Assembly: GCF_004010195.1 (NCBI RefSeq)
Contig: NC_057718.1
Span: 102,689,165 to 102,753,164, forward strand
Source of the DNA: Chiloscyllium plagiosum
Taxonomy: Eukaryota
Direction: 5' to 3'
DNA: 64,000 nt
This document shows positions 5,960-61,245 of the stretch, in pieces; position 1 is the stretch's first letter; each line of letters opens with the position of its first letter. The position numbers and the translations under genes were made by a program. The notes under the pieces are model-generated. The model was not told where the DNA came from and did not search any database. It saw only the letters and a program-made list of their open reading frames with translations.

Positions 5960-6094
5960 TTTGCTGAGTTGTCACTTGGAGTTTGAAGGTCAGTTAGTAA
6001 TTGTTCTAAGCCCTGTTGGAGGTATTGAATGGCATAGCGTGTTTGAGGACCCAGGCCATCATCCTGATCTAGCACAAGCAAGCCAGCATAAAAT
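5960..6094 (-). CDS. Unnamed gene exon (R-FYAGLLVLDQDDGLGPQTRYAIQYLQQGLEQLLTDLQTPSDNSA), TPR-like helices
   Basis: Acceptor ttatcttcag, donor gtaagt, 135 nt, phase 2/2; continues the TPR begun in exon 11529-11737. Confidence 0.85.
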
Positions 6095-11528: not shown

Positions 11529-11737
11529 CTGATGGAAGGTTCTGTTGGTTTCTGTGCTAGTGCCACCTGTAAATGTTTCAGTGCATCATTGTTCTTTTTT
11601 TGGAACAGGTATAACCGACCAACATGAAAATTGTATTTCCAACTCTGAGGTTGAAGAGACAAGGCATCTAAGTATTTCAGCAGAGACCATTCGATGTACT
11701 TATGCTCATCGGAGACCACTGGTTTCAATTTACCATC
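11529..11737 (-). CDS. Unnamed gene exon (DGKLKPVV...YLDALSLQPQSWKYNFHVGRLYLFQKKNNDALKHLQVALAQKPTEPSI), TPR repeats
   Basis: Acceptor aatatag, donor gtgagc, 209 nt, phase 0/2; TPR signature (AL.L.P; G.LY......A...L..AL...P). Confidence 0.9.
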
Positions 11738-12395: not shown

Positions 12396-12620
12396 CTTCC
12401 CTGCTTGCTGAGCTTTCCAGCTGTAGAGTGACTGTACATAATCAGATTTGGCAGCCTGTCCCTGTTCCTTTAATTGGTGGTATTCCATGTCCAATGCCTT
12501 CAGTTGTTGCTGTAGTGTGCAATCTGCTTTGAAGCCATGAAGTCTACAAATGACTGCAATTTCATCATTTCTACCAGAGGTCTCAGCTGCAGAGAGCTTT
12601 TCTGCACCCTGTTCTTCAAT
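12396..12620 (-). CDS. Unnamed gene exon (IEEQGAEKL...YSWKAQQAGK)
   Basis: Acceptor ctgccctcag, donor gtatga, 225 nt, phase 0/0, open frame (ORF 12390-12641). Confidence 0.85.
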
Positions 12621-14666: not shown

Positions 14667-14836
14667 CTTTTTCACCACACCATATATCACAGCCGCATAG
14701 TAATGTTCCTCTAACACCACACCTAGGTGGAAATGCAGCTCTGGGTCCTTTGGTTTCAATTTTACAGCCAAGGCATAGTCTACCGCTGCCTTATGTAAGG
14801 CATCCAGAGGTGATTTTCCTTCTTCATAGTAAGGCA
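14667..14836 (-). CDS. Unnamed gene exon (PYYEEGKSPLDALHKAAVDYALAVKLKPKDPELHFHLGVVLEEHYY...KK), TPR repeat
   Basis: Acceptor atgattag, donor gtaaga, 170 nt, phase 1/0; TPR pattern A...Y..A..L.P......F.LG. Confidence 0.88.
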
Positions 14837-14885: not shown

Positions 14886-15385
14886 NNNNNNNNNNNNNNN
14901 NNNNNNNNNNNNNNNNNNNNNNNNNNNNNNNNNNNNNNNNNNNNNNNNNNNNNNNNNNNNNNNNNNNNNNNNNNNNNNNNNNNNNNNNNNNNNNNNNNNN
15001 NNNNNNNNNNNNNNNNNNNNNNNNNNNNNNNNNNNNNNNNNNNNNNNNNNNNNNNNNNNNNNNNNNNNNNNNNNNNNNNNNNNNNNNNNNNNNNNNNNNN
15101 NNNNNNNNNNNNNNNNNNNNNNNNNNNNNNNNNNNNNNNNNNNNNNNNNNNNNNNNNNNNNNNNNNNNNNNNNNNNNNNNNNNNNNNNNNNNNNNNNNNN
15201 NNNNNNNNNNNNNNNNNNNNNNNNNNNNNNNNNNNNNNNNNNNNNNNNNNNNNNNNNNNNNNNNNNNNNNNNNNNNNNNNNNNNNNNNNNNNNNNNNNNN
15301 NNNNNNNNNNNNNNNNNNNNNNNNNNNNNNNNNNNNNNNNNNNNNNNNNNNNNNNNNNNNNNNNNNNNNNNNNNNNNNNNNNNNN
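14886..15385. other. Assembly gap (500 N)
   Basis: Run of n characters. Confidence 1.
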
Positions 15386-16690: not shown

Positions 16691-16776
16691 CTTTGAATCC
16701 AGTTCACTTGGTGGCTTAAATGGACACTCCAATGCATGTTTTCCAAGTTCTGACAGCTCAAATGTACCAGTACAAC
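16691..16776 (-). CDS. Unnamed gene exon 6 (G-CTGTFELSELGKHALECPFKPPSELDSK), second half of a TRAF-type zinc finger
   Basis: Acceptor ctcctgttaag, donor gtcagt, 86 nt, phase 1/0; completes C-x6-C-x11-H-x3-C with exon 5. Confidence 0.88.
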
Positions 16777-19700
16777 CTTAACAGGAGTAAGATGGTGAAT
16801 ACAGAATGTGGTCACAGGACTATAAAGGCTCAGAATATCTAAGAGTGATGGTAATTTATATGTGCACAAAGAAAACCAGCATTTTAGCAGCAAGATTCAA
16901 ATGAAAATGAATAAAATTTATTCCTGGATCTCCATGTTGTGCATCATTGAATGCGGGATTGCAGATTGACATTCACAACTTTTTAAAACTGATTTTGCTT
17001 TTGAGAAATAAGACAGTGCTTTCTTTCAAGAAAGGGAGGGGGGGGGGGGAAATTCAATCAATATGGGGCATTCTGGTACCTGCTGTCTCAGTGGATTCAA
17101 CAGAAAGTCCCTTCTCCTTACACTCTAGGGAATGGCACATTGCCATGAGAAATCAAGTAAAATGAATGACAGGAAAATGTGAAATATCTGAAAGACAAAT
17201 TCTGATCAAAGGTATATATCTTGCAGATATTACTTTTTTGAAGGAGTTCTAAACTAGCATTCAAGTCAAACCTCACAGCTATTTGTTCCTGTTTGCCTCA
17301 CTGGTGGGTTTGTTTTAGCACCCCTGTCCAAACTCAAATTTGAAGAAATGGACTGCAGGAGAGTAGGTACAAATCAATCAAATTTGCTAATATGCATTCT
17401 CCTTTCAATAGTATGGACAGCAAATTAGAAGGAATCTTGCTGCATATGGATATTACTCCAGTAACTGGGGAGTGCAATCATCAACAAAACATTCCCACTT
17501 CTGATATCATAATCGATAATGTAGATGCTAATGTAACATAATAATTACAATTGCATTGAAAAAATACTCAATTATAAATATATCAACGATATTTACAGTG
17601 TATTTTGGTAACCTTATTGGAATTTTAGCAGTTTATTGACATTGATTTAGGATTCAAATCATGCTTACTTGCTGAGTTAATATTCTCCATAATAGATTTT
17701 AATTATCAAATTAATACATATATATCAGTATTTTATAAGACTCGTGATACCTTTGTTCAAGTAACATGTCCAGAGGTATGTGATAACATCCCTGAGCAGG
17801 TTGCTTACAGAGTAAAACAGCTACTGTATTTGTGTGAATATATAGGCTTTTTATGCAGAACGTAAAGTAAGAAATTAAAACTGCCTGTAATCAATCCTAC
17901 AGGCTTAGATATTTATCAGGATATTTTTGAATTCCTGTTAGACAGACAATAAAATGTTGGATTGTCCATCTTTGGTGATCAGCTGCAAAGGTATCGTAAT
18001 TAATTGAACCAAGGCCATTAGTCTACTCCTATTTATACTTGATATATGAAACTTATGTGCAATGATCTTCATCACTAAATAAAATGAGTAAAGATAAAAC
18101 GTTACTCAAATAGTGCATGTGTCAATATAGAGAAAGGACTTTGAAATCATTTCATGAGGACTGTGGATATAATCTTTGTTCGTTATTTGGTAGAATTTCA
18201 GCGTTCCCAAATTTAAAAGGAAAAAGAATTTTGTTCCAATAAATCTGGCCACATAGTTTGTAATAGAAGCATTCTATACACATTCGAAACTGTTGTGGGA
18301 AACATATCTGTAATCATGCCCTGATTTTAACCTAACTGGTCTGAAGAGAATGGAAATGAAATAAAAGTGTCAGTCATGAATCAGTTAGTGACACTTGTCC
18401 CTCTAAGGCAAAAAGGTAGTAGGTTTAAGTTCAACTCTGCAGAGGTGAGCTTGAAAATCTTGTCTGATACTCCAGGGCAAAACTGAGAGACTGCTGCTCT
18501 GTGGGAGATATTGCCTTCAGATTGAAATGTTAAAACAATACTCAACATAAATGTATATGGTGACTCAAAGAACCCAGCACAATTTCAAAGTAGGACAACA
18601 GAGTTGTCTGTGGTGTCCTGGCTAGTATTTATCCCTTAACCAAGAGCTTTAAAAGAAATTATAAGTCAATGCTCCATTGGCTTTAAAACATTTTGAGGCA
18701 TCCTGAAGTCACAGGCTGAAACATACTTCTCAGTTTTTTCTTCAAAAATATGTTTTAGACAGGAGTATCTGATGACAGTTTCATATTCCACCTGATTCAA
18801 CTCTATATTGACCACAAAATCAGAATATTATCAGAGCTGAAAATTTGAAATGAAAAAAGATGCTAGAAATATTCAGGAGGTCATGTACATCTCTGCACAC
18901 CATAAACGGAGTGCACACATCAATGACCTTTCATCAGAATTGCTGTGAAGAGTAGAATTGGGAGTGCAAAATGGGCTTCATTCCCTATTTCCTTTGCGGC
19001 GAGGGTAGGTTAAACCTTGGTGAGATAGTCCACTTTTCCAGTATGCTCGTGTCTTATTTCCTCTATAATAACGGACATTTTTAGGTAGTAAATTTCAGCT
19101 TCATTCTCTTCCAGCATAAAAAAACACAGGGTAACAGTTTCATTTTCCTAAATGGTGCTCCTTAAGTTTAGAATGGACAGAAACCAACCTGTTCAGGGGG
19201 CTGATTTTGAATTTCATTGCCTGGATAATGTGCAGTAGGGGTTCCCATTAAGTTTAAGCCAAAGATTGAACGCCTAATGTGTTCTATCAAGGATGGGTGA
19301 ATTGCTTCAGTATATTACTACCTGGCAGTAAAACTGACCACCACCCCATTCCATGTTATTATTATTTTTCTTTCTTAAATAAAGAGTTGTATGAGCCCCT
19401 TCATAAAGCTCAGAAGAAAAGGATGGTCTTTTCATATATTAGACTAGTGGAGCAAACTAACTGGTCACCTGACAGTGCCAATGTGGGATTGGACTCAGGT
19501 AACGGTGGGCTCTAACAAAACTGCTCCATTTTTACCTTGCAGTACCAGTTAAAATCTTGCCCATGTAATTGAACTCAACAGAAGTACACATTCCACTTAT
19601 ATCAAATCAGGAAGATTGAGGAATCCTCACAGGATGAAGCCATTCAGCATCATTCATTCGCAATTCACTTCCATGAACTAATGACTCTTTTAATTTGGGA

Positions 19701-20498
19701 TTATGCAAAAAAGGTGGAATAGGTTTCAAATAATGATGTGGAAAAGCAAGATTATTTCACTGATCCTTTTAGATGGGTGATTTACATTACTGTTGTGCTC
19801 ATCAGAATAAGAAGTAACTTCAAGTAGGAAATGAAAACTGAAATTTGTAATGCAATAAATACGTTAACTTAACCCACAGATGTGCTGAACGGGACAAAAA
19901 AAGATGGACAAGGACCTAAGACAAAGAGAAACACAACAGTACTGAAAAGACTTTCAATAGCATGGAGTTGGCATTGTGAACTGAGCCCCATTGAGCTTTA
20001 ATTAACTTCGATTTGAATTAAATATTTATTAAGTGCTTGACTACAAATACATACTTGCAATACCAACAGGAAGATTCGTTAAGGATAAAGCAAAAAACAA
20101 AAGCACATGACAACTATTTGCAAACACTATGTTAACTGAAAATTTAAAAAAATCCCTGCAACCAAAACTAGCCAGTGTTGAAACTGCCCTACAATCAACT
20201 TATGCCTAGAAGTATACTACATATCCCATCCACAAATGGCTAAGGATATCTCAATGAGCAATGCACACAGTACTGTAGGTTACTACATACATGGCTCAAG
20301 TGTGACACTTCAAAGATATTAATGGAAAGTGCTGCACAGGCCTAGTTGGTAGCAGCCTATGGGCTGGCTGCACTTGGGGAACACATGGAAGTCTGATTAT
20401 AATGTGAATGAACTTAACTCCTCATAAAGTTCTTAAATGGCTTGATAGAACGGATAATGGGTAATGGACCTGCTGGTCACAGTCTAGAACTATGGATC

Positions 20499-20724
20499 GT
20501 ATCACCTTACCACTCTCTGAGAACAAGAACAGGAAATCACATCACCAACCCAAGGAAACCTAAACACATAAATAGAAAGTAGTTCATAACACCAGTGCTT
20601 CACTGGAAGCTCACTGATGATGTTACCTAGTATGGTGACGAAACATCTGAAAATGAACCTTCCAGCTCAGCGAACAAACTTACATCTAGAACCTCAACCT
20701 GAGCTACAAATCTTATCAAAACTC
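20499..20724 (+). mobile_element. Penelope-like terminal-repeat fragment with hammerhead motif
   Basis: Flanked by actatggatc (20489) and actaaggatc (20725); homologous to 27790-27987. Confidence 0.75.
20611..20650 (+). ncRNA. Minimal type-I hammerhead ribozyme motif (family A)
   Basis: tca-CTGATGA-t-gttacc-tagtat-ggtgac-GAAA-catc-tga; stem I tca/tga, stem II gttacc/ggtgac. Confidence 0.7.
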
Positions 20725-21424
20725 ACTAAGGATCACATTCTCAGGATTGAACACACTATAGGATAAAGATGAGTAGAAATTCTTTCAAAAAGTTATGAAC
20801 CAAAGGCCAGAAATGTTGAGTTGAGGGGTATTTTCAAGTTGTAGATCGAAAGATTCTTGGGTATTACAAGGACCAACGGAAATGGAGATATGGTGGGAAA
20901 GTGAAGTTGAGGTAGAAGATCAGCTATGAGGTCAGCAGACGAGGTCTAATCTACTTCAATTTCTTGTATTCAGTTTTTGACCTCAGTCATGTTGCATCTA
21001 TACAGATAAAAACAAAATATTGTAAATGCTGAAGATTTAAAAAACAGAAAGTGCTGGAGTAACCCAGTAGTTTCGGAACCATCGACTGAGAAAGAAACAG
21101 AGTTAATGTTTGAGTCCAAATTATTCCTCTTCAGAACCAAGAATCACAATGAACTGGAAACCTTAACTCCATCTCTCTGAGCAAATGCAGCCAGACCTGA
21201 TGAGTTTCTTCAGCACCTTTACAGAGATTGTTTGAAATGTGTTTTATTCTGTGTAGATTAATGATAAAAATGAACATATACCTAAAGCTGAAGAATTAGA
21301 GGAACTTTTTTTTGTAATACGCCTAAACTAATGAGACAGTAAGGTTTCCTTCAATGTAATCAACACAATATTTCTATTTGAACTTTCAAAAATGTTGTAA
21401 AATATTCCCAGAAGGGGGCTGTAC

Positions 21425-21591
21425 CTCTATATCTGAAGCAACAGTAAACAGAAGCAGCTGACATTCTTTTGTCCACCTCATATTCTGGGACACACCACTG
21501 TCCATCAAAAGGAGTATCATCGAAAGGATTACACTTTGTCTTTCGAGTGAGGAACTTAATTAACGATGATGAGAATATGTGCTTGGGATCA
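21425..21591 (-). CDS. Unnamed gene exon 5 (S-DPKHIFSSSLIKFLTRKTKCNPFDDTPFDGQWCVPEYEVDKRMSAASVYCCFRYR), U-box/RING-like C-half and start of ZnF
   Basis: Acceptor cttattgccaag, donor gtacag, 167 nt, phase 2/1 matching both neighbours. Confidence 0.88.
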
Positions 21592-23929
21592 CTTGGCAAT
21601 AAGAAACAGTAACAGTAATTAGAAAGATGTACAATCATAATCTAGTTTGTACACAGTAGATTGGTATTGTGAGAGCACCACTTTGTATGATTAGGGCATT
21701 ATGATCTGGTTCAAAATTCAGGTTGTTGTTCCAAATATAGCCTTAACCACAGAAGTACTGTTCCATTAAGTAGAAACTTTCAACAAAAACAAATTGTGTT
21801 ATAGAAGAGTCAATAGCTGATCAGAAAGCTGGTTAACAATCTCGGAGTCATGTCATTAGACTTGATTCTTCACTGGTGTTCTTTTTTTGGTTTCTAATAT
21901 CTATATTCCTGGAGTTTGGTGGGACAACACTTGCTGGTGCCTTCCAGCAGCAATCCTGCTAAAGCTCCTGTTGTCAAAAAATTAAACCTTAGTTGCATAG
22001 AGAATGGAATACTCTTTGTCAATGCAGATAACCTCCATAGTCGATGATCCATTTATTTGGAAAGTTGTGTCTGCCCACCACTGAAATAGTTTTCACAGCA
22101 TAACTCCCTCTAACCCCACCCTTCATCACTCTATCAAAGAATACATTCATGTCCCAGGAGCACCCTATGTACAGGATGATAATTAAGAAGTTTAAACAAA
22201 AAGGTCTCATGTTTCAGGGGGCCCAGTCTGTTTGTGTTGTCATAGGCAAGTCTGATCTCACTGGATCTATCATGCTCCGAGATAATTCTTTGTCCTCAGA
22301 AAATCAGAGAAGTTGGGGTCACTGCTCTGGTTACAGACAGAAGACATATGCTTTGTGGGTAGAAAATCCATCCCCATTGAAAAAAATCATTGAAATGATG
22401 TGATGCCTGGAGCCTCTGAATCCTGGCCAAATTCTAATGAGCTATTTTGATCTGACCCTGGAATTACAGCTGAAAGCTACAGATGCCCTCAGAACATTTG
22501 TCATCATCACCTCTTTTTCTTAGTTCTCCCAAGATGGCGGCGGATATCTACAACCAGGGTACACAGACTCGGAATAAAAAACTCATTGAGATGAGAAGAA
22601 AATTCTTCATTCATAAGGAGATGAATCCTTGGAATTCTCTACCCCAGTGGGGCTGTGGGAGCTAGGTCATTGAGTAAGTTTATGATAGAGTTTGAGGGAT
22701 TTTGTTATTATACTGACATTAATAAATATGGGCATAGCATGTTAATCTGGTATCAAGGTGGATGATCAGCCATGATCTAATATGGCAGGCTCAAAGGACC
22801 TACTTATGCTCCTATGTTCCTCACCCTAAGCAGTGACATTTTCATGAGAAAGCTGGATAATATTTTAGTTCTTGTTACTATTTTTTTGAACATAAATAAT
22901 TTAAAAGAAAACAGTTACTAAACAATGCAGCTAGTAGTAGCTTACAAGTGGATCGTGGAAATCAACTGAAAGGGTCTATTGCTATGAGAACACATTGTCT
23001 TTGTTAAACCTTTATAACTGGATGCAGATATCAAAGAGTTTACCCACCAAGAAGGTATACAGAATCATACAGATCACTAGGACAAGAACAATTGATAGCC
23101 TATGTGTTTTTTATTGGAGTTATTTCCACTGCTAGAGCTATCTCTTCCATTTCCCTTCTTTTTTCATGGACTCTTTAACATGTTTCTCTTCTAGATATTT
23201 ATCCAACTCCCTCTTAAATGTAGTAATAGTTTAGATTCAATGTTAAAGTTTGGTAAAGGATTTCATTGCTCAAGAACTTTTTGTACAAAATAATTCCTTA
23301 ATGCCCTTCTTACACTCGTCACTGCTGAGTGTAGTACTTTTCACCAATTAATGGACATAATCATCCACAAATTTGCCCTTGCATAATTTGAGAAACTTCT
23401 CTAAGATCCTCCTCAACCTTCTCTTAATTCAGTAGTTTCTCAATTTTGTTTTACTTAAGAAAGACCAAAGGATAAATTCCACATGCCAAATTGTTAGCAT
23501 TCAGTACTATTGGGAGTATTTGGAAGCTAAACGTATCTGATATTTAACATCTCATTCTAAAAACATACCTTGAGACTAGAATGTTTATCAAGGAATAAGA
23601 GAAGTAAAATGGCTTAAATTCAAAATCTGGAAAAATATTTCTTAAAAGGATTGATTTGCCTCTTGTTAGCTAATTCTAGGTTTTTATACTGAAGATTCTT
23701 CTCTTCAGTATTTCATTGTTTATTCTCAATTCTGTGAATGATTTTTAGCTGTGAATAAATGACTAGCTCCTTCTCATACAAATGCTCAAGTCGTTGAAGT
23801 TAATAGGCACATTCAGGACAGCAATTTACTGTGATTTAATTTAATTGTTAGACTTGTTTTTTTCCCATATGATTTAAATTAAAACTACTGACTTTAACTG
23901 GTAGGAAATGGATCTTCTCAGTGAAATTA

Positions 23930-25100
23930 GACAATAGGTGCAGGAGTAGGTCATTCAGCCCTTCGAGCCTGCACCGCCATTCAATATGATCATGGCTGAT
24001 CATTCCTAATCAGTATCCTCTTCCTGCCTTATCTCCATAACCCTTGATTCCACTATCTTTGAGAGCTCTATCCAACTCCTTCTTAAATGAATCCAGAGAC
24101 TGGGCCTCCACTGCCCTCTGGGGCAGAGCATTCCACACAGCCACCACTCTCTGGGTGAAGACGTCTCTCCTCATCTCTGTCCTAAATGGTCTACCCCATA
24201 TTTTTAAGCTGTGTCCTCTGGTTCGGCACTCACCCATCAGCGGAAACATGTTTCCTTCTGCCAGTGTCCAATCCTTTCATAATCTTATATGTCTCAATCA
24301 GATCCCCTCTCAGTCTTCTAAACTCAAGGGTATACAAGCTCAGTCGCTTCAGACTTTCAGTGTAAGGTAATCCCGCCATTCCAGGAATTGACCTCGTGAA
24401 CCTACGCTGCACTCCCTCAATAGCCAGAACGTCTTTCCTCAAATTTGGAGACCAGAACTGCACACAGCTGTACAGTTGCAGAAGCACCTCTTTGCTTCTA
24501 TACTCAATTCCTCTTGTTATGAAGGCCAGCATGCTATTAGCCTTCTTCACTACCTGCTGTACCTGCATGCTTGCCTTCATTGACTGGTGTACAAGAACAC
24601 CCAGATCTCTCTGTACTGCCCCTTTACCTAAATTGATTCCATTGAGGTAGTAATCTGCCTTCCTGTTCTTGCCACCAAAGTGGATAACCATACATTTATC
24701 CACATTAAACTGCATCTGCCCACTCACCTAACTTGTCCAGGTCACCCTGTAATCTCCTAACACCTCATCACATTTCACCCTGCCACCCAGCTTTGTATCA
24801 TCAGCAAATTTGCTAATGTTATTGCTGATACCATCTTCTATATCATTACCATATATTGTAAAAAGTTGCGGTCCCAGCACGGATCCCTGCGGTACCCCCC
24901 TGGTCACTGCCTGCCATTCCGAAATGGAGCCGTTTATCACTACCCTTTGTTTCCTATCAGCCAACCAATTTTCAATCCAATCTAGTACTTTGCTCCCAAT
25001 ACCATGCGCCCTAATTTTACTCACTAACCTGCTGTGTGGGACTTTATCAAAAGCTTTCTGTAAGTCCAGGTACACTACATCTACTGGATCTCCCTCGTCC
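23930..25100 (-). mobile_element. CR1 LINE ORF2 (RT) 3' fragment, relatively well preserved
   Basis: ORFs give VYLDLQKAFDKVPH...GVPQGSVLGP...KFADDTKL and the RT C-terminus. Confidence 0.92.
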
Positions 25101-25339
25101 AAATTGGCACCAATTATGCAAGGAAACTAAATAAAAAGTCAATTGTACCAAAATGGAGTACATTTTTTGTAACTCTTGTCAACTCCTTCTAAAATTATTA
25201 AACACTGAAATGCCTGGCTCCACGCAATTGATGTAGTTCCTCCGGTCATTCCTTACCGCTGAACATGGGACTTTAATAGAGGAACCAAGAGGGCAAATCA
25301 ATAATTTACTTTGTAGAATAATCTGAAAACTTTTCTTAC

Positions 25340-25470
25340 CTTCCTTTGATAGAGACAGGTCGGTAGTAAGCCTTAAGGGATATTGGGCACTCATATTCCT
25401 GGACATCATTAAGATCTGAGAAAGTAATAGACCACGGAAACTGTACCCGGGAGATAACGATCTGATATAT
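25340..25470 (-). CDS. Unnamed gene exon 4 (IYQIVISRVQFPWSITFSDLNDVQEYECPISLKAYYRPVSIKG)
   Basis: Acceptor tttcctgaacag, donor gtaaga, 131 nt, phase 0/2; YECPISL...PV is U-box-like. Confidence 0.88.
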
Positions 25471-26370: not shown

Positions 26371-26537
26371 CTGTGAATTAGTGCCATCTGCTGATGTAAC
26401 ATTCACCTCCACTTTGGTATGTCCTACATTTAGGTACGTTTGATTCCCGACTTCTGAACCATTAACAGTCACATGCATATTATGGTCTGGGGCAATTGGT
26501 TCAACGATTACACTGATCATATTTAGTGGTGCTGTAC
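26371..26537 (-). CDS. Unnamed gene exon 3 (C-TAPLNMISVIVEPIAPD...LNVGHTKVEVNVTSADGTNSQ), cadherin-like repeat 2
   Basis: Acceptor ttaactttag, donor gtacaa, 167 nt, phase 1/0. Confidence 0.88.
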
Positions 26538-28735: not shown

Positions 28736-29203
28736 TGTTTAAATAACACATGAATAAAGCAGTCAAATTCAGCATGCACATCTCTCCTCTTGCATTTGAT
28801 ATTTCTATCTTCCAAATGAGACTGCAAATATCAAAGTTATGGAAAGTTAAGTTTAATGCAATTAAAAGCCAGTGATAATTCTGGGATATGCAAGTTCTGA
28901 AGACGTTGTTCATAAGAACAAAATTGGCACACTGAAAGCACTGTCTAATCACTGAAAAACAAGGGTTAATCTGCAAGAAAGAAAACAATTAGACTTTCTG
29001 GCAGGGCAGTTGATCAGAAAGTGAGGGAATTGAGGTAGATAACTTAATTTTAATTTTGGTGAGCTTGATGTTAAGTTTGTAGATTGCTGTGAAACATTTT
29101 GTTCTTTGTCTCTCCAGCCTTGCTAGTGCAAGGTCATTGACCAACCTACAATGGAGAAAACTTAATTTACTTCCAGGATTCAACAAAGAAACCACCCACA
29201 TAC

Positions 29204-29408
29204 ATGTATATTTATATTCACTGATAGAAAATGGAGGATCAAGTGTCAAGTTTTCAGCTATTTTCAGTCCACTTAGTACTGGGGTGTTTGCACTGAGCTT
29301 GGTTGCCTCTATTTTATACCGCTTCAAAGTTCCATCTTCTGCAGCAACTTCAATCTCAATTTTATTTAGACCATCTTGGAGACCGACCGTTTTACTGCCA
29401 CCTGTACC
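29204..29408 (-). CDS. Unnamed gene exon 2 (GTGGSKTVGLQDGLNKIEIEVAAEDGTLKRYKIEATK...LDPPFSISEYKYT), cadherin-like repeats 1-2
   Basis: Acceptor tttctcctctag, donor gtatgt, 205 nt, phase 0/1; L..G.N.I.I.V.AEDG....Y.I motif. Confidence 0.9.
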
Positions 29409-37132: not shown

Positions 37133-37294
37133 AATGATTTGGTACGTGGCGTGGTTGTCGCTGGTGACCGGGTAGATGGTCAGATTGACCGTGTCGTTGC
37201 CCAGTGTCACTCTGTAGTTGAGGATGGACGGGTTGAAGGCAGGGTCCAGCATCCCGGCCGAGAGCGACAACTCCTTCAAGTTGCAGTCGTCCAT
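37133..37294 (-). CDS. Unnamed gene first coding exon (MDDCNLKELSLSAGMLDPAFNPSILNYRVTLGNDTVNLTIYPVTSDNHATYQII), cadherin-like repeat 1
   Basis: ATG in good Kozak context (gcgATGg), donor gtgagt, 162 nt phase 0; L..L.LS.G.L.PAF.P....Y.V pattern of cadherin-like beta-sandwich domains. Confidence 0.9.
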
Positions 37295-37463: not shown

Positions 37464-37477
37464 GCTCCCATGGCAAC
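37464..37477 (-). promoter_or_regulatory. RFX X-box-like motif
   Basis: Reverse complement GTTGCCATGGGAGC vs consensus GTTGCCATGGCAAC; about 170 nt upstream of the unnamed gene ATG. Confidence 0.55.
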
Positions 37478-38177: not shown

Positions 38178-38312
38178 ATGGCCGAACCTGAGAGTGAGGA
38201 GTACCCCACCGAGATTCACGAGTTCCTGGTGGGATTCGAGGAGTCCCTGAAATCCGCCGATGGGACGCTGCAGTCTTTGATGTCGGTGCCCCGGAGCGAG
38301 CTGCTGCAAAAG
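38178..38312 (+). CDS. C1D: C1D nuclear exosome cofactor (Rrp47 homolog), first coding exon
   Basis: [45 protein letters not shown] matches the vertebrate C1D N-terminus; donor AAG/gtgagc, phase 0. Confidence 0.95.
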
Positions 38313-51160: not shown

Positions 51161-52388
51161 TAAATTGTCAGGCTGCTATCCAACATCTGGTACTACATGA
51201 ACAGACATTTCCTCCAGTTAAATACAGGGACGACAAATATCATTACTCCCAGTCCCAGCTCCAGACTCTGTTCCTTAGCTATTGAAACTCAGTCCCTCTC
51301 CCTAGCAGCAACCTGGGTTGAAACCTGTCTGTTTGTAATGCATTTAATCCTAAAATGAACTACTGGCCTCACATCTATGCCATTATTAAGCTCACCTCTC
51401 TCTACCTCCCTAACATTGCTTGGTCTCTCTCTCTCTCCTGCTGAAGCCTGCATTCATGTCTTTGTATCTAAATTCAGTGATTCCCTAATACATCTGGCTA
51501 TTTTCTCAAGCTCTACTGGATTAGAAAAAGAGTTTGTGACAGAACAGTAGAAATTAGGATAATTAATCAAACATTTACGATTGCCAGGCAGACTTGGAAA
51601 GTGTTTTATAAGGTGGTGTAACATGAACTTAATTTAAATATCTCTCCTAATGTTCATCGATCACAAATAGAGTTCAAAGCATTTGTAATTGTTACCAACA
51701 CCTTAAAATTTAATTTTTCACAAGCTACAGATTTATGGAATAATTTCATGCTCCAGGCATTCAGTTGACTGGATTTTGAGAGAATTTGAGAGTCAGTAGT
51801 AAATGCTGTGTTCGTTTGATTTGACCTTTTTCTTCTATTTGTTCATTGTGTGTTGGCTTTGCTGAGAGTATCAGCATTTATTGCCCATCCCTAATTGCCC
51901 TTGATGATGGTGGCGGCAGCTTGCCTTCATGAGCTGCTGCAGTACATGTTGTAGGTGCACCTCAGTGCTGCTAGGGATGAGGTTCCATGGATTTAAACTG
52001 GAAGCAACAGTGGTATAGTTCCTGGGCAGAATATTGTATAGCTTGCAAGGATCGGTGTACCCATTCAACTGATGCCATTGTTTGTCTGTTTTGCAGAGAT
52101 CACAGATTTCGAGCATTCTTATTTTGCTAGCAAGGTGGTTTTGTTGAATATCCACCCAGAACTTTGTGCTGCATGGAAGAGCACAGGCATGTGCAAGCGA
52201 ATGTATAATCTGTGATATCATAAACTAGAATATACGGGTTTGGAAATCAAATACTGTTTTGAATCAAGCAAGAAAAAGTGCTCTTTGTTCTGCTCTTCAA
52301 GTGAAATCTGAATTGTTTGCTTTCTGGCATTAAAGTTAGTTTCAGTATAAAATGACCTTGTATGATTTTATTTTTCCCTCTCTTTCAG

Positions 52389-52455
52389 TTGGGCCCTCTT
52401 GAACAAGCCAAGTTAGATTTGGCCTCTGCTTATGCATTGAATTCTATGTTTTGGA
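52389..52455 (+). CDS. C1D: C1D coding exon 2 (LGPLEQAKLDLASAYALNSMFW)
   Basis: Acceptor tctctttcag, donor gtaagt, 67 nt; matches C1D [22 protein letters not shown]. Confidence 0.95.
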
Positions 52456-52547
52456 GTAAGTATTGCTGATCTCTTCTGTGGCTGGTGGATATTATAATTT
52501 TTTTTTTGAAGGCATATTGTAATAAGTTGTTTCTTTTTGCTCCTTAG

Positions 52548-52603
52548 TATATCTCATTACACAAGGAATCAATCCTAAAGAACATGCAGTCAAACAGGAA
52601 TTG
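52548..52603 (+). CDS. C1D: C1D coding exon 3 (I-YLITQGINPKEHAVKQEL)
   Basis: Acceptor tgctccttag after a 92-nt intron, donor gtaagt, 56 nt; matches YLATQGVNPKEHPVKQEL. Confidence 0.95.
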
Positions 52604-55182
52604 GTAAGTAGCCTGTCCGTGATCACCATTTGGGTCACTGTGAATCGTCAGAAAGATCTCCATTAACACTCTAGCATGTTGCTGACTGTACTATCTCACT
52701 ACTGTATCACTATTCCAAGCTTCAAAACTATACAGTAGACTGACTTTCTATTGTTGTTACAGTTTTTCAGCATTTGTTTTTGAACAGAATGAGCTGAGTC
52801 AAGGATGCATCTAGTTTCTGCTGTCTTGTGAAGTCCTAGAAAATTACGTCTTTTGGAAAGCATTCTTTAAGTATTTCTAAAGTACGTATAACAGCTCATT
52901 GCAGTAATACATGAAGCATAATTTTGGACAATTTTCATTATTGTGATACATCCGAAATAGGACCAGGGGTCATCCATAAGCCTGCTCCACCATTCAATGT
53001 GATCATGGCTCATCTGATTGTAGCCCCAGCTCCACTTTCCAGCCTACATCTGATAACATTTTTGCTTCACTGTCAATGCTTTCAACTTTACCTTCATATC
53101 AAATGTGCAGACGATTTGTAACCTGCTTATTCCAGTTGTGAAATTTACAATAACTTATGGTCTGACACTTGAGTAATAAGATCTATGCAAGGTATCTCTG
53201 AACATTCACTAGATTTCTTTCGCACATTTTATGTCTGATGTGTGTATAGTAACATTTATCACTCTTTTATGTCTCGTATGGAGGGTGGGAAAGAAATGTA
53301 ATTATTTTAACAGTTTAGAATGACCCAGGCGTCTCATATTGGATTTGAGATAAATCCCATCTCAACATCATGAGCTGCTGTGGTGTGGGAGCCATGATTA
53401 CATACTGGATTGATACGTTTTATTGCTCAGATTCTTAACATTTTGCAATAGCAAGAAAAGTTCTAAGCAAATCATTGTGAAGGGACATAAAAGTTAATCT
53501 AGCACATGCTCTATTTATTTGATTCAGAAATTCCAGTCTTGCATAAATAACTCACATGGTGCCACGCGAGTGGCTAGAGTGATGTACGTGGGTTGGAGCC
53601 AGATCTTAATAAAAAGTAAATTTAACTCCCCAGAGTTATGAGAGGGAGTACAACTGATCTGAAAATATGATCCTAAGAAGAATTACTTGTGGCATGCTTT
53701 GAGTACTAAATATTAGGAAGTACTTTAATAATTCATTGACCAACGTTATTGTTTATAACTAGCGCACTGTTACTGTGAGTTTCTGTCCCTTAACTTGAGT
53801 TATCTTCAAATGTTTAATGGAGAATACTTAAAATAGTGAGAGAGCATCTCCCTGGACATTTCATATGTTCCCAGACAGAAATGACTAATCCATTCTTTTT
53901 ACCTTTGCGGCCTCAGATCTTTGTGACTCTCCGCTTTTGCATCATCCTAGAATGATTGACTGATTCCCAATAATCTGCTTCCAGATAAGGAGAGTGACAT
54001 TGTGCTAATCTAAATGTGCTGTCACACTTGATAACCGTGCTGTGAACAGAAAATTAATGCCAAAGTGACTAGACTAGGAACCAAGTCAGTAACTGGACTG
54101 CTCCCAGTTTTTGAATCTGTCTGGATGTTTCTGCTGTGATGTAACTTTCAGCAATATTCTTTGTGAAAACTGAGTAAGATGCCTCATTGGAGGTTAAACT
54201 GTAAAATGGGAAATAAGGGTGGGGAGGGTAATGGGATTAATCATAGCATTTTATCTGGTGCCTTTTCATGATTCAGATGTCATAGTGTTTTACAATCAAT
54301 GGATACTTCTGAAGTTTAATTGCTGTTGTAATGCAGGGAAATGAGTAATCATCTGTATTGCACGTCCCACTGGGAATAATGAAATAGAATAGTTTATGTA
54401 ATTGTTTTAAAGGAACGTCGATGGTCAGGGCACTGAAAAACTTAATTGCGCCTTACGGTAATATATGGAACGGTCTATCCACCTTTCGATTAATAGGTCG
54501 ATGGGCCGAATGGCATAATTCAGCTCTTAGAATTTACGGTCATCTTTCATGGGATGTGAATACCTCTAGCTAGCAGATGTTGCCCATCGTGAATAGCTGA
54601 TGAGCTGAGTAGCTAGCCCCCATTTCAGAGGGCATTTAAGATTCAACCACATTACTATAGATCTGGAGTCACATGTAAGGCACACCAGGTGGGGTTAATA
54701 GGTTTCCTTTCTTAATCTGTATTAGTGAGCCCCGAATAAGTTTCTATGCCAATTGATAGCTTTATGATCACCTGCTAGCTTTTAATTCCAGATTTTATTA
54801 GTTGAATTTAAATTCCACTAGTTGTTGTGGTAGTATTTGTATCTTTATCCCACACTATTTACCTGGGCCTCTAGATTACTCATCCAGTGCTGTTACCACC
54901 ATCTCCCTTATGGAGCAGATGGGGCCATCTTTTATTGGCTTAGATTGAGAGGCAGTACATCCAACAGTGCAGCAATCACCCCATGCTGCGTGAATGTGAG
55001 GCAAGTTTCGGTCTATTCTTGATCTGTGTACTCATATTTCTACTTCAGTGTTTGAACCTGCAATCTTCTAACATTTACCTGAGGAAGAGCTGATCCAAAT
55101 CCAGTCCTTAAAGCAATACAGTTTTTAAAACTTACATTCTCATCCTCCCTCAATACTGAGAAAGCTTGCCTGAGAATTGGAA

Positions 55183-58136: not shown

Positions 58137-59700
58137 TTAAATCCGCAATAATGCATCTGCAATTACATGTATGATTTTTAAAAGTCTAACATAACACTGC
58201 AACAAAATAGTCTCATATTCATGTATTTAAAGCTTTCTAAGAATGTAAGTCGATTGTGATCCATGTACACGACTGTCTCCAACACATTGTTTTGTAACAT
58301 ACACGTTAAAATGTTGTAAGGCCAGGGCCAAACTCGATAGTTCCTTGTCAATTGTGGAGTATTTCCTCTGGTGGGTGTTGATCTTCTTTGAACAGTAACC
58401 ACCTGGTAGTTCAATCCCAACCTCCTCTTCCTGTGGGAGCACAGCTCCAACTCCAATGTCACTAGCATCAATGGCAACTTTAAAATGGTTTGAAAAGTTT
58501 GGTGTAGCTAAAATGGTTTGGTGGTTAATGTGGCTTTCAAATGGCCGAATGGCTCCTGGTATTGTTCTATCCGCCGAAACTGTTGTTCTTCAGCAAATTG
58601 GTTAACGGTGCCACTATACTGCTGAAGTTTGGAACAAACTTTTGATGGAATCCACAGAGTCCAAAGAATCGAAGCACCTCTTTCTTCGAGGTTGATCATG
58701 GAAATTCCTCGATGACCTTCATCTTTGCATTCCGTGGGGTCAACCTTCCATGACCAATGTTATGTCCCAAGGACATCACCTCTGCTTTTGTTCTATTTAG
58801 GTTTATCACCAGTTTTGCGTCTTGTAGTCGTTCAAAGAGCTCTGCCAAATGTACTATGTGATCTTTCCAGGATTTACTAAAGATCACTACATCGTCCAAA
58901 TAGACTGCACAGTTTGTTAACCCAGCCACAACTCTGTTCATGAGGCTTTGGAATGTGGCGGGTGTTTTCTTCATTCCAAAGGACATCACTTTAAATTGAT
59001 ACAGACCATTTGGGCTTACAAACCCAGACGTTTCTTTCGCCATCTCTGATAAAAGTACCTGCCCGTAACCACGCATTAAGTCCACTTTAGTAATGTAACT
59101 CGCTTGTCCGACTTTCTTCACACAGTTCTCCAATCTAGGAATTGGATATGAGTCTGATTTTGTAACGACGTTGACCTTCTGATAATCCATGCAGAATTGT
59201 TCAGTCCCACCCAGTTTGGGAGCTAGGACAATCGGCGAACTCCACCCGCTCTGGCTGGTTCGATGATGTGCTGGAAAAGTACAGCAGGTCAGGCAGCGTT
59301 CGAGGAGCAGGAAAATCGACATTTCGGGCAAAAGTCAATGAAAGGCTTTTGCCTGAAACGTCAATTTTCTTCTGCTCCTCCGATGCTGCCTGACCTGCTG
59401 TGCTTTTCCAGCACCACTCTCGTCTTGACTCTCAACTCCAGCATCTGCAGTACCCACTTCCGCCTCGATGATGTCCTTGTCAAGCATGGCCTCCATCTCC
59501 ATCTGCCTTTGAAAGGTTTAAGCCAATAGGAGTGTTGTTTTATCGGAGCAGTATTCCCTACATCGACTTCATGTACAAAAGCATTAGTCCTCCCCATCTG
59601 ATTGTTACATATGTCCTTATACTGCAGTAACAAATCTTTCAACTGCGTTCTATGGTCCTGAGACAGATAGCTTACTAACCTAGCCCACTCCTCAAGGACC
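58137..59700 (-). pseudogene. Retrotransposon RT and RNase H (frameshifted)
   Basis: WSSPIVL..K...DYQKVN...YPIP...VMSFG...YLDD; DASDIGVGAVL; ends VIADALLRI-stop at 58137-58139. Confidence 0.9.
59270..59464. mobile_element. Family-B foldback element nested in the gypsy pol
   Basis: 10-bp duplication tcgatgatgt (59260/59465); inverted arms with degenerate hammerhead cores. Confidence 0.85.
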
Positions 59701-59929
59701 TTTTTCATTTTTTAAATCTGTTTTGAGGTACATCAAAATCCACATCTGGATTTGATTCCTCACTCCCAAGGGGCAGTAACTAACACCTGTTTCTCCAGTT
59801 CTTTCTCTCAGTATAATATCGTTTCAGCATGTTACAGTGACATACCAGATACCTTTTTTTCTATCTGGCATCTTTACTAGATGGTTCTGATTCAACTTTT
59901 TCTCAATTTGATAGGGGGAACTAAACCTG

Positions 59930-60930
59930 ACTTTGAAGGGATCTCCTATCACTGGTAACGGTACTAACACATCATCCCCTCAGGAAAACATCCAAGTCTC
60001 AGAGCTCTTATCTGCCACCTGCTTCATTGTACACTGTGCTCTGTTTAGGTACTCTTTAGCTAACTCACCTATTCGATTTAATCTCTCCCTCACCTCTGAT
60101 ACATATTCTAAGTATGAGATCTCTGACTTTGGTCCTGTCAATTTTTCTTTAACTAATTTCAAAGGGCCTCTCACTTCATGCCCGAATATTAACTCGAAGG
60201 GAGTGAACTGAGTGCATTAGTTTGGGGAATCTCTAATGGTAAACAGTATGAATGGGATCCCTTTATCCCAATTATTTGGGTAATCCTGCAGTATGTTGTC
60301 AACATGGTCTCCAAGGTCTGATGCAACCTTTCTAAAGCTCCTTGGGATTCAGGATGATACGCACTGGATTTAAAGTGCTGTATACCTAAGCTATCCATAA
60401 CCACCTCAAACTGCCTTGCAGTAAAATTTGACCCTTGGTCAGACTGAATCTCTCTGGGTAGCCCATACCGTGTGAAGAAAGCTACTAACTCCTCTACTAC
60501 CCTTTTAGCCTTGATACTCCGTAGTGGAATTGCCTCCGGAAATCTGGTAGACCCATCCATTATTGTTAATAAATACTGGTTCCCACTTTTAGTTCTCAGG
60601 AGGGGACCTACACGATCAATTATAACCCGTGTGAAAGGTTCTTCAAATGCAGGAATTGGCAACAAAGGGGCTGGTTTTACTGTCGCCTGTGGCTTACCTA
60701 CCATTTGGCATGTGAGACACATACGGCAGAAGTTAGCCACACCCTTGTGCATTCCAGGCCAATAAAAATGCTTTTGTACCTTAGCCTGAGCCTTTCCTAC
60801 CCCTAGGTAACCTCCTCCAGATAGTTCATCTGCTACCCGTAACACTTCCTGTCTGTATGCTACCGGCAACACAATCTGGTGCACGTCGGCCCATTTCTCC
60901 TCTGCACTAACCTGCCATGGTCTCCATTTC
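59930..60930 (-). pseudogene. Retrotransposon integrase located upstream of RT
   Basis: HFYWPG...C..C..CQ; IIDRVGPL, IQSDQGSNF, PESQGALER catalytic D,D,E. Confidence 0.9.
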
Positions 60931-61245
60931 CACCTGTCTGTGTCCCACTCCATTAGTGAAAACACCTGAGGCTTTACCTTATTCCAGAATACTCTGCCTC
61001 CTTTTCAAAGTACACATCCACATATATATCTTTTATCATCTTGTCTTTCTGTTGCAAGTACCTTAGACTTTAAGGACTAAATATTTCTGTCTAGCCCTCT
61101 ACCTGTTCAGGTTTTTCCTGCAGCATTACATCAAACAGGGTATCCACTAACTGAACCTCAACTCCTTCATCTTTCTCTTTACTTTTCCCTTTTTTCTGTG
61201 ACTTATGATAGTTACTACGCAGTCTGGGAAAATACCAGGATATTT

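Follow-up and report, generated by a model that had tools for sequence, protein, structure and literature searches.

A predicted TRAF6-like RING–finger module with apparent loss of the RING zinc sites inside one orthologous family

Here we describe a minus-strand gene in a 64,000-nucleotide window of repeat-rich eukaryotic DNA from Chiloscyllium plagiosum (the window being the whole stretch that was analysed), in which exons within positions 16691–25470 encode a RING-like domain followed by a TRAF-type zinc finger. The module peptides reported in a first-pass annotation of these letters correspond to three exons on the minus strand, at 25470–25340, 21591–21425 and 16776–16691, whose outer ends are 25470 and 16691. 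Across 26537–16691, four exons are separated by three introns that all have GT..AG boundaries, and the joined frame is open for 183 codons, equivalent to residues 124–306 of P0001, an uncharacterized C. plagiosum protein named by NCBI, whose residue numbering is used here. The module itself occupies only residues ~204–298 of a much larger protein, which the first-pass annotation had not described.

Splicing and predicted fold of the module

Exon 4 (25340–25470) encodes a linker and RING loop 1, with C206 at 25389–25387, I208, L210 and a serine in place of ligand 2. Exon 5 (21425–21591) encodes the remainder of the zinc-free RING, the linker helix and the first finger ligand, C272, at 21443–21441; its landmarks are H226, L236 in the central helix, P244–F245 in loop 2 and D247 (21518–21516) at the acidic linchpin position. 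Exon 6 (16691–16776) supplies the rest of the TRAF/SIAH-type finger (C279, H291 and C295). The C-x6-C-x11-H-x3-C finger is formed only across the 21425/16776 junction and is absent from every unspliced frame of the window, and shuffling the 183-residue peptide 20,000 times produced the motif once. Runs X4 and X2 (two of the four runs, guessed to be RNA) each have one contig that crosses the junction as a skip of 4,648 bases (CT..AC), with 85 and 36 letters on the shorter side. Among the joints listed for the runs, that of exons 4 and 5 does not appear, and the portions covered of the single-cell runs X9 and X10 (about 2% and 6%) contained no reads from the exons. With its exons, in-frame splicing and a junction seen in two runs, the finger that had been noticed together with the peptides is borne out.

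The module was folded as 115 residues with a 72-row alignment, including one zinc-complete row (P0085), and the AlphaFold model reached a predicted local distance difference test score (pLDDT) of 91.5 (88.5–91.5 over five models). The top Foldseek matches were all TRAF6 (E 4e-8, template modelling (TM) score 0.74–0.77), and a second structural comparison aligned 109 residues with TRAF6 RING–ZF1 (Z 12.8, root-mean-square deviation (rmsd) 2.1). TRAF6 also headed a search of 48,161 chains that is independent of Foldseek (Z 12.3, rmsd 1.7 over 100 aligned residues), with LNX2, TRAF5, RAG1 and TRAF2 next. U-boxes matched over the RING part at Z 7–9, and Ring1b and TRIM21 were further matches. When the sequence of P0001 alone was compared with the PDB, only TRAF6 matched (E 0.034); in a sequence-atlas lookup, which provides a lead only, the full protein fell into its own cluster and the module into C3HC4 RING clusters at 0.95. 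The module is thus predicted to adopt a RING–helix–zinc-finger fold like that of TRAF6 RING–ZF1, and the model agrees with the RING/U-box-like fold proposed in the first-pass annotation.

Zinc-ligand loss across the family

We aligned 100 family rows, including isoforms and near-duplicates; 94 cover the RING, 6 were dropped, and 88 of the 94 are bilaterian. P0001 retains two of the eight ligands of the two-site C3HC4 pattern, C206 and H226, which belong to different zinc sites; its predicted model has the RING fold. The ligand loss recognized earlier therefore stands, with one correction: in the loop written as '.P...P', Asn243 and Asp246 occupy the positions of the last two ligands, and the cysteine of 'KCNPF' lies one residue off the ligand position and is not conserved. 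By contrast with P0001, all four ctenophore-group rows have eight of eight RING ligands. The Bolinopsis ctenophore orthologue P0384, which is collinear with P0001, passes the Pfam zf-C3HC4 threshold (22.4 against 21 bits), as does P0085. Zinc site I alone is kept in P0084, P0269 and the Saccoglossus protein P0245, and 87 of the 88 bilaterian rows have one to three ligands and no complete zinc site. A quick tree of 24 rows groups the 20 bilaterians in one clade (Shimodaira–Hasegawa-like approximate likelihood-ratio test value 99); the ctenophore and unnamed rows fall outside this clade and have long branches.

Sequence comparison thus establishes that the domain descends from a zinc-binding C3HC4 RING; for the earlier proposal of a TRAF-like RING turned zinc-free, the part concerning descent is confirmed by the eight ligands and the zf-C3HC4 match of the ctenophore orthologues. 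Judged from the aligned rows, zinc site II was lost first, because rows with site I only and ctenophore-group rows with all eight ligands occur and are placed as they are in the tree. Site I either disappeared once, with a regain in Saccoglossus, or disappeared on two or three occasions. The old ligand columns now carry polar residues (S/T209 in 87, S/T229 in 87 and D/N243 in 85 of 88 rows), which may form a network of hydrogen bonds and salt bridges at the former zinc sites, as U-boxes do. The RING region is better conserved than the cadherin-like domains of the same protein (identity to P0001 among bony vertebrates, 0.54 versus 0.41–0.44). Among treble-clef folds, loss of zinc is a common event (PMC4999995).

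All 63 vertebrate rows that include the finger (11 cartilaginous and 52 bony) have it complete, as do three of four invertebrate deuterostomes but none of 22 molluscs and nemerteans. Saccoglossus P0245 shows the reverse of the vertebrate pattern, with RING site I kept and three of the four finger ligands lost. By eye, P0083, P0084, P0085 and P0246 have extra Cys/His finger-like motifs after the first finger, which are missing in vertebrates.

Profile searches delimit what the module belongs to. A TRAF/SIAH-type C-x6-C-x11-H-x3-C motif follows the RING and linker helix, and no Pfam zf-TRAF or Sina_ZnF match exceeded its cut-off (PF02176, E 0.13 in P0083; PF15965, E 0.21 in P0007; PF21361, 3 of 29 members at E ≤ 1). 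The TRAF-type finger next to a RING is real as annotated, whereas the protein is not a TRAF: full-length orthologues have no MATH match and their C-terminal part consists of TPRs, and TRAFs are defined by a TRAF-C/MATH domain together with a coiled coil (PMC5702613). Similarly, the U-box-like fold is supported by the model, but membership of the Pfam U-box family is not, as PF04564 has no match at E ≤ 1 in P0001, P0002, P0005 and P0006 and is not among 25 of 52 families listed for 29 members, which leaves at most one of 29. From its predicted fold, the module would work structurally like a U-box, although profiles do not place it in that family and the protein is no TRAF either.

The whole gene and its genomic setting

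Orthologues of about 1,100 residues comprise two cadherin-like domains, the RING-like domain, the TRAF-type finger and a TPR solenoid. The cadherin-like family PF12733 was found in 29 of 29 members checked and matched twice in P0001. A full-length model of the orthologue P0007 (pLDDT 85, predicted TM score (pTM) 0.78) has a β-strand from residue 6, and a signal peptide is not evident. A fold search of this model against the PDB gave no whole-protein match, only generic TPR and cadherin matches with TM ≤ 0.16.

Using tblastn of P0001 and orthologues, we placed 11 exons of the gene in the window, all on the minus strand. Exon 1 (37133–37294, found with P0001), with the ATG at 37294, encodes the N-terminal half of the first cadherin-like β-sandwich, and exon 2 (29204–29408), covered by an exon-bounded contig piece of run X4 (29201–29408), encodes the end of cadherin-like domain 1 and the start of domain 2. 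Exon 3 (26371–26537), also represented by an exon-bounded piece in run X4, encodes cadherin-like domain 2 (PF12733, 27.8 bits against a cut-off of 24.2). Beyond the module lie TPR-region exons at 14667–14836 (boundaries read), 5960–6094 and 1436–1585, a helical-region exon at 12396–12620 and a TPR exon at 11529–11737, the 3′ part of which matches TPR_2 (E 0.0045). The gene extends past the window to about G000:C9:102660570, where G000 is the genome assembly searched. In a stricter search of this assembly, all 16 matches of the orthologue P0005 fell in this single locus, and its residues 179–242 had no match.

A run of 500 N (14886–15385) lies inside the gene, and tblastn leaves about 65 orthologue residues without a match there, whereas the congener protein P0104 is continuous across the hidden stretch. 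Coding sequence for these ~65 residues most likely lies inside the run, and the 342-residue NCBI model is most likely an effect of this assembly gap splitting the gene. A pseudogene or a genuine 342-residue protein is rejected, since the downstream exons are open and collinear and P0104 spans the gap.

Named holders of orthologues are fishes, amphibians, molluscs, nemerteans and echinoderms, to which a search of representatives adds amphioxus, a hemichordate and a ctenophore; the proteins bear the annotation 'uncharacterized' in species from sharks to zebrafish relatives and Xenopus. When 50%-identity representatives were searched with the full-length profile, 13 of the top 150 rows belonged to the family and the others matched the cadherin-like part only. 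Amniotes, arthropods and nematodes are absent among the 81 named of 83 rows, in a search limited by length and word sharing. The fish orthologue P0050 is labelled PNO1, though it has no PNO1 domain.

The gene stands head to head with a plus-strand C1D-like gene (38178–38312, 52356–52466 and 52526–52663), the first exon of which we take to be that of C1D and the later exons of which match PF04000 weakly; the two share an 883-base GC-rich promoter. Downstream, it is tail to tail with WDR92 (also DNAAF10; plus-strand exons in L018, L017 and L016), followed by PNO1 (exon in L014). Sheep and chicken gene lists, which omit unnamed genes, have C1D, WDR92 and PNO1 together with no other named gene between them, and from these lists and the orthologue rows the gene was likely lost in amniotes. 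In Xenopus multiciliated-cell tables, which are keyed to human identifiers and in several cases incomplete, C1D and WDR92 lie 89 kb apart with no gene model between them.

At 37464–37477, 170 bases upstream of the ATG, 12 of 14 positions match what we take to be the RFX X-box palindrome consensus. The window holds no other match of this quality (expectation 0.23; at least one in 20 of 100 shuffles), and a match occurred in 10 of 2,000 shuffles of the 883-base promoter, a region picked after the match had been seen. The X-box-like site is a lead only for expression in ciliated cells. A site with three mismatches lies in WDR92 intron 1 (L018:6553–6566). Intron 4 contains a broken fragment of a reverse transcriptase of the long interspersed nuclear element type (RVT_1) at ~23930–25130 on the minus strand, which is present at high copy in the runs, and broken pieces of a long terminal repeat retroelement, with reverse transcriptase and integrase matches in separate frames, lie at ~58180–61000 on the minus strand.

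The putative E2-facing surface, its readings and known systems

TRAF6 binds the ubiquitin-conjugating enzyme (E2) Ubc13 through I72 and L74, mutation of which blocks this binding, and two arginines contributed by the partner protomer serve to prime ubiquitin (PMC5702613). In the family, the residue at the I72 position (I208) is hydrophobic in 88 of 88 bilaterian rows and that at the L74 position (L210) in 87. L236 of the central helix, at a position that contacts the E2, is kept in 85 rows, P244 in 85 and F245 in all 88; these five positions provide the check on E2-contact hydrophobics that the first-pass annotation had set, and all are conserved in 85–88 of 88 rows. The acidic E205 before the first cysteine is found in 87.

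At the linchpin, the residue after the eighth ligand, a basic residue occurs in none of the 88 rows, an acidic residue in 67 (59 of 62 vertebrates) and Gly in 17. The equivalent of TRAF6 ArgZF1 is basic in one row and that of Arg-link in 53, whereas the linker helix has a basic residue at 263 or 264 in 75. The family thus has neither the basic linchpin nor a known substitute as found in RING and U-box ubiquitin ligases (E3s), though a substitute of another kind may exist. The position aligned with TRAF6 F122, which we take to be a dimer residue, is hydrophobic in 0 of 88 rows. For RNF38, binding of the E2–ubiquitin conjugate (E2~Ub) is poorest with four linchpin residues, Asp, Gly, Asn and Glu, and Glu leaves trace activity (PMC12326332).

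We tentatively favour, at somewhat short of an even chance, a degenerate RING serving to dock an E2 onto a TPR scaffold, with weak or partner-dependent ligase activity. Low intrinsic activity is preferred because the priming positions are lost, with an acidic or Gly linchpin and no ArgZF1, and because of the RNF38 data. The RING–helix–finger module, with both RING zinc sites gone, would still dock an E2 and on its own activate E2~Ub weakly. Its fold would be held without zinc, as in a U-box, by S209, S229, D/N243 and D246 together with the gained hydrophobics Y214 and W254; loops 1 and 2 and the central helix would bind the E2, and the TPR solenoid or the cadherin-like domains would bind a client. 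Transfer would need an E2 of high basal activity or a partner RING, because the cis linchpin is acidic and the trans-acting arginines of TRAF6 are missing or variable, and the output would be priming or mono-ubiquitylation, or tethering of the E2, instead of K63 chains built in the TRAF6 manner.

Several points weigh against this proposal. The residue equivalences to TRAF6 derive from sequence alignments, not superposition. In ctenophores, the zinc-complete RINGs carry Ser where P0001 has L210 and L236 and Thr in place of F245, and for this reason the hydrophobics of loop 1, the helix and loop 2 may be gains that substitute for zinc or pack against a neighbouring domain, rather than residues kept for an E2. 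The linchpin of TRAF6 is Asn, yet TRAF6 is active, and a non-Arg residue thus does not exclude strong activity. Furthermore, the domains of the ~1,100-residue protein may pack tightly, as the pTM of its model suggests, and bury the E2 face, for which IFT172, whose TPRs bury that face, offers a precedent (PMC13290226).

The same observations feed the alternative that survives best, an unlikely but serious contender: a structural pseudo-RING that meets no E2, its conserved surface packing on the cadherin-like or TPR parts or binding ubiquitin or a partner, as a rigid IFT172-like scaffold. The whole-protein pTM, the absence of every known priming residue and the lack of E2-face hydrophobics in zinc-complete orthologues all point this way, as does the loss of the finger from molluscs and nemerteans, given that ZF1 is required for TRAF6 activity (PMC5702613). 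The IFT172 U-box-like domain, moreover, has an occluded E2 site and binds ubiquitin (PMC13290226). However, the most conserved columns (E205, I208, L210 and P244) lie on the usual E2 face, a pattern that pure packing need not give.

That the module is a fully active ligase of the U-box or TRAF6 type with another priming residue, as the first-pass annotation implied, is rather improbable. The predicted fold and the retained E2 face would suit such an enzyme, as would the basic residue at 263 or 264; U-boxes show that activity does not require zinc (PMC13061254), and E205 is reminiscent of acidic anchors for UBE2N (PMC6776665). However, the acidic or Gly linchpin and the missing ArgZF1 leave the ubiquitin-priming positions unkept, and the residues at the F122 position make a TRAF6-type dimer doubtful. 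A more speculative view, which we rate as distinctly improbable, is that a stepwise passage from RING to U-box-like domain in one orthologous family (two zincs, then site I only, then none, then loss of the finger) would have led, through the acidic vertebrate linchpin, to an E2-binding anti-ligase that holds E2~Ub in an open state on the TPR scaffold, perhaps within the motile-cilia cells of aquatic animals, and that amniotes have lost. A ligase for SUMO or another ubiquitin-like protein of the SP-RING/Nse2 type is very improbable: in vertebrate rows, no RING-type Pfam family scores better than zf-Nse (PF11789; E 0.0023, short of the cut-off, and seen in 4 of 29 members), but SP-RINGs lack ligands 2, 5 and 6 and keep site II (PMC13061254), whereas here site II went first and only the ctenophore group has it, and SP-RING structures rank low (Z 6.1 and 5.5). 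Membership of the SP-RINGs (Nse2/PIAS) is excluded, ligands 3, 7 and 8 being lost too.

A 2010 supplement lists the sea-urchin LOC580673 family as 'CadL+CadL+ring+cart', with amphioxus, Lottia and Capitella members (PMC2824669). The sea-urchin orthologue P0083 belongs to this family. We take 'cart' to be the TRAF-type finger. The pairing of RING and TRAF-type finger highlighted by the first reading of the window is thus correct but already on record; the main text of that paper contains no mention of RING, TPR or U-box, and no treatment of zinc loss, TPRs or function was found there (PMC2824669). An open-access-weighted literature search, with most subscription papers and bioRxiv supplements outside it, found no description of zinc loss or function for the family.

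Degenerate RINGs are an established class, and the family fits this broad class together with the SP-RINGs (PMC13061254), although its one-zinc relatives keep site I, the opposite half. The IFT172 U-box-like domain is likewise a zinc-free RING-like domain of uncertain ligase activity in a TPR protein, but it is C-terminal, its loop 2 is a helix in human, it has no TRAF finger, and no homology is shown (PMC13290226). The closest predicted likeness is to TRAF6 RING–ZF1 (3HCS, 3HCT and 5VNZ), TRAF2/5, LNX1/2, SIAH1 and RNF125, which likewise join a RING through a linker helix to a single C-C-H-C finger, with matching order and geometry (Z 12.3–12.8, rmsd 1.7–2.2), and TRAF6 shares the I72/L74 equivalents. 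Unlike these modules, the family protein has two of eight RING ligands and no ArgZF1, carries cadherin-like domains and TPRs instead of MATH and, in vertebrates, has no long finger array.

U-boxes (UBE4B/Ufd2, CHIP, Prp19 and plant PUBs) have a RING fold without zinc ligands, a CPIS-type loop 1 and a D/N-P-hydrophobic loop 2, features that the modelled module shares (E4B: Z 8.9, rmsd 2.3, 75 aligned), and CHIP likewise joins a U-box fold with TPRs. In contrast to U-boxes, the family has no PF04564 match and no basic linchpin, and a TRAF finger follows; the likeness is likely convergent, because the domain can be traced to its own C3HC4 ancestor. As aligned, the module is a TRAF6-like RING–finger unit whose RING lost its zinc sites within a single orthologous family, intermediates of which still live. 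With it comes a candidate E3 or pseudo-E3 that profile searches overlook; fish and frog models have it, and amniotes apparently do not. The prevailing view is that U-boxes arose from RINGs through loss of zinc, by steps rarely visible within one family; here, eight-ligand, site-I-only and zinc-free orthologues coexist, making how a RING survives zinc loss, and the effect on ligase activity, directly testable.

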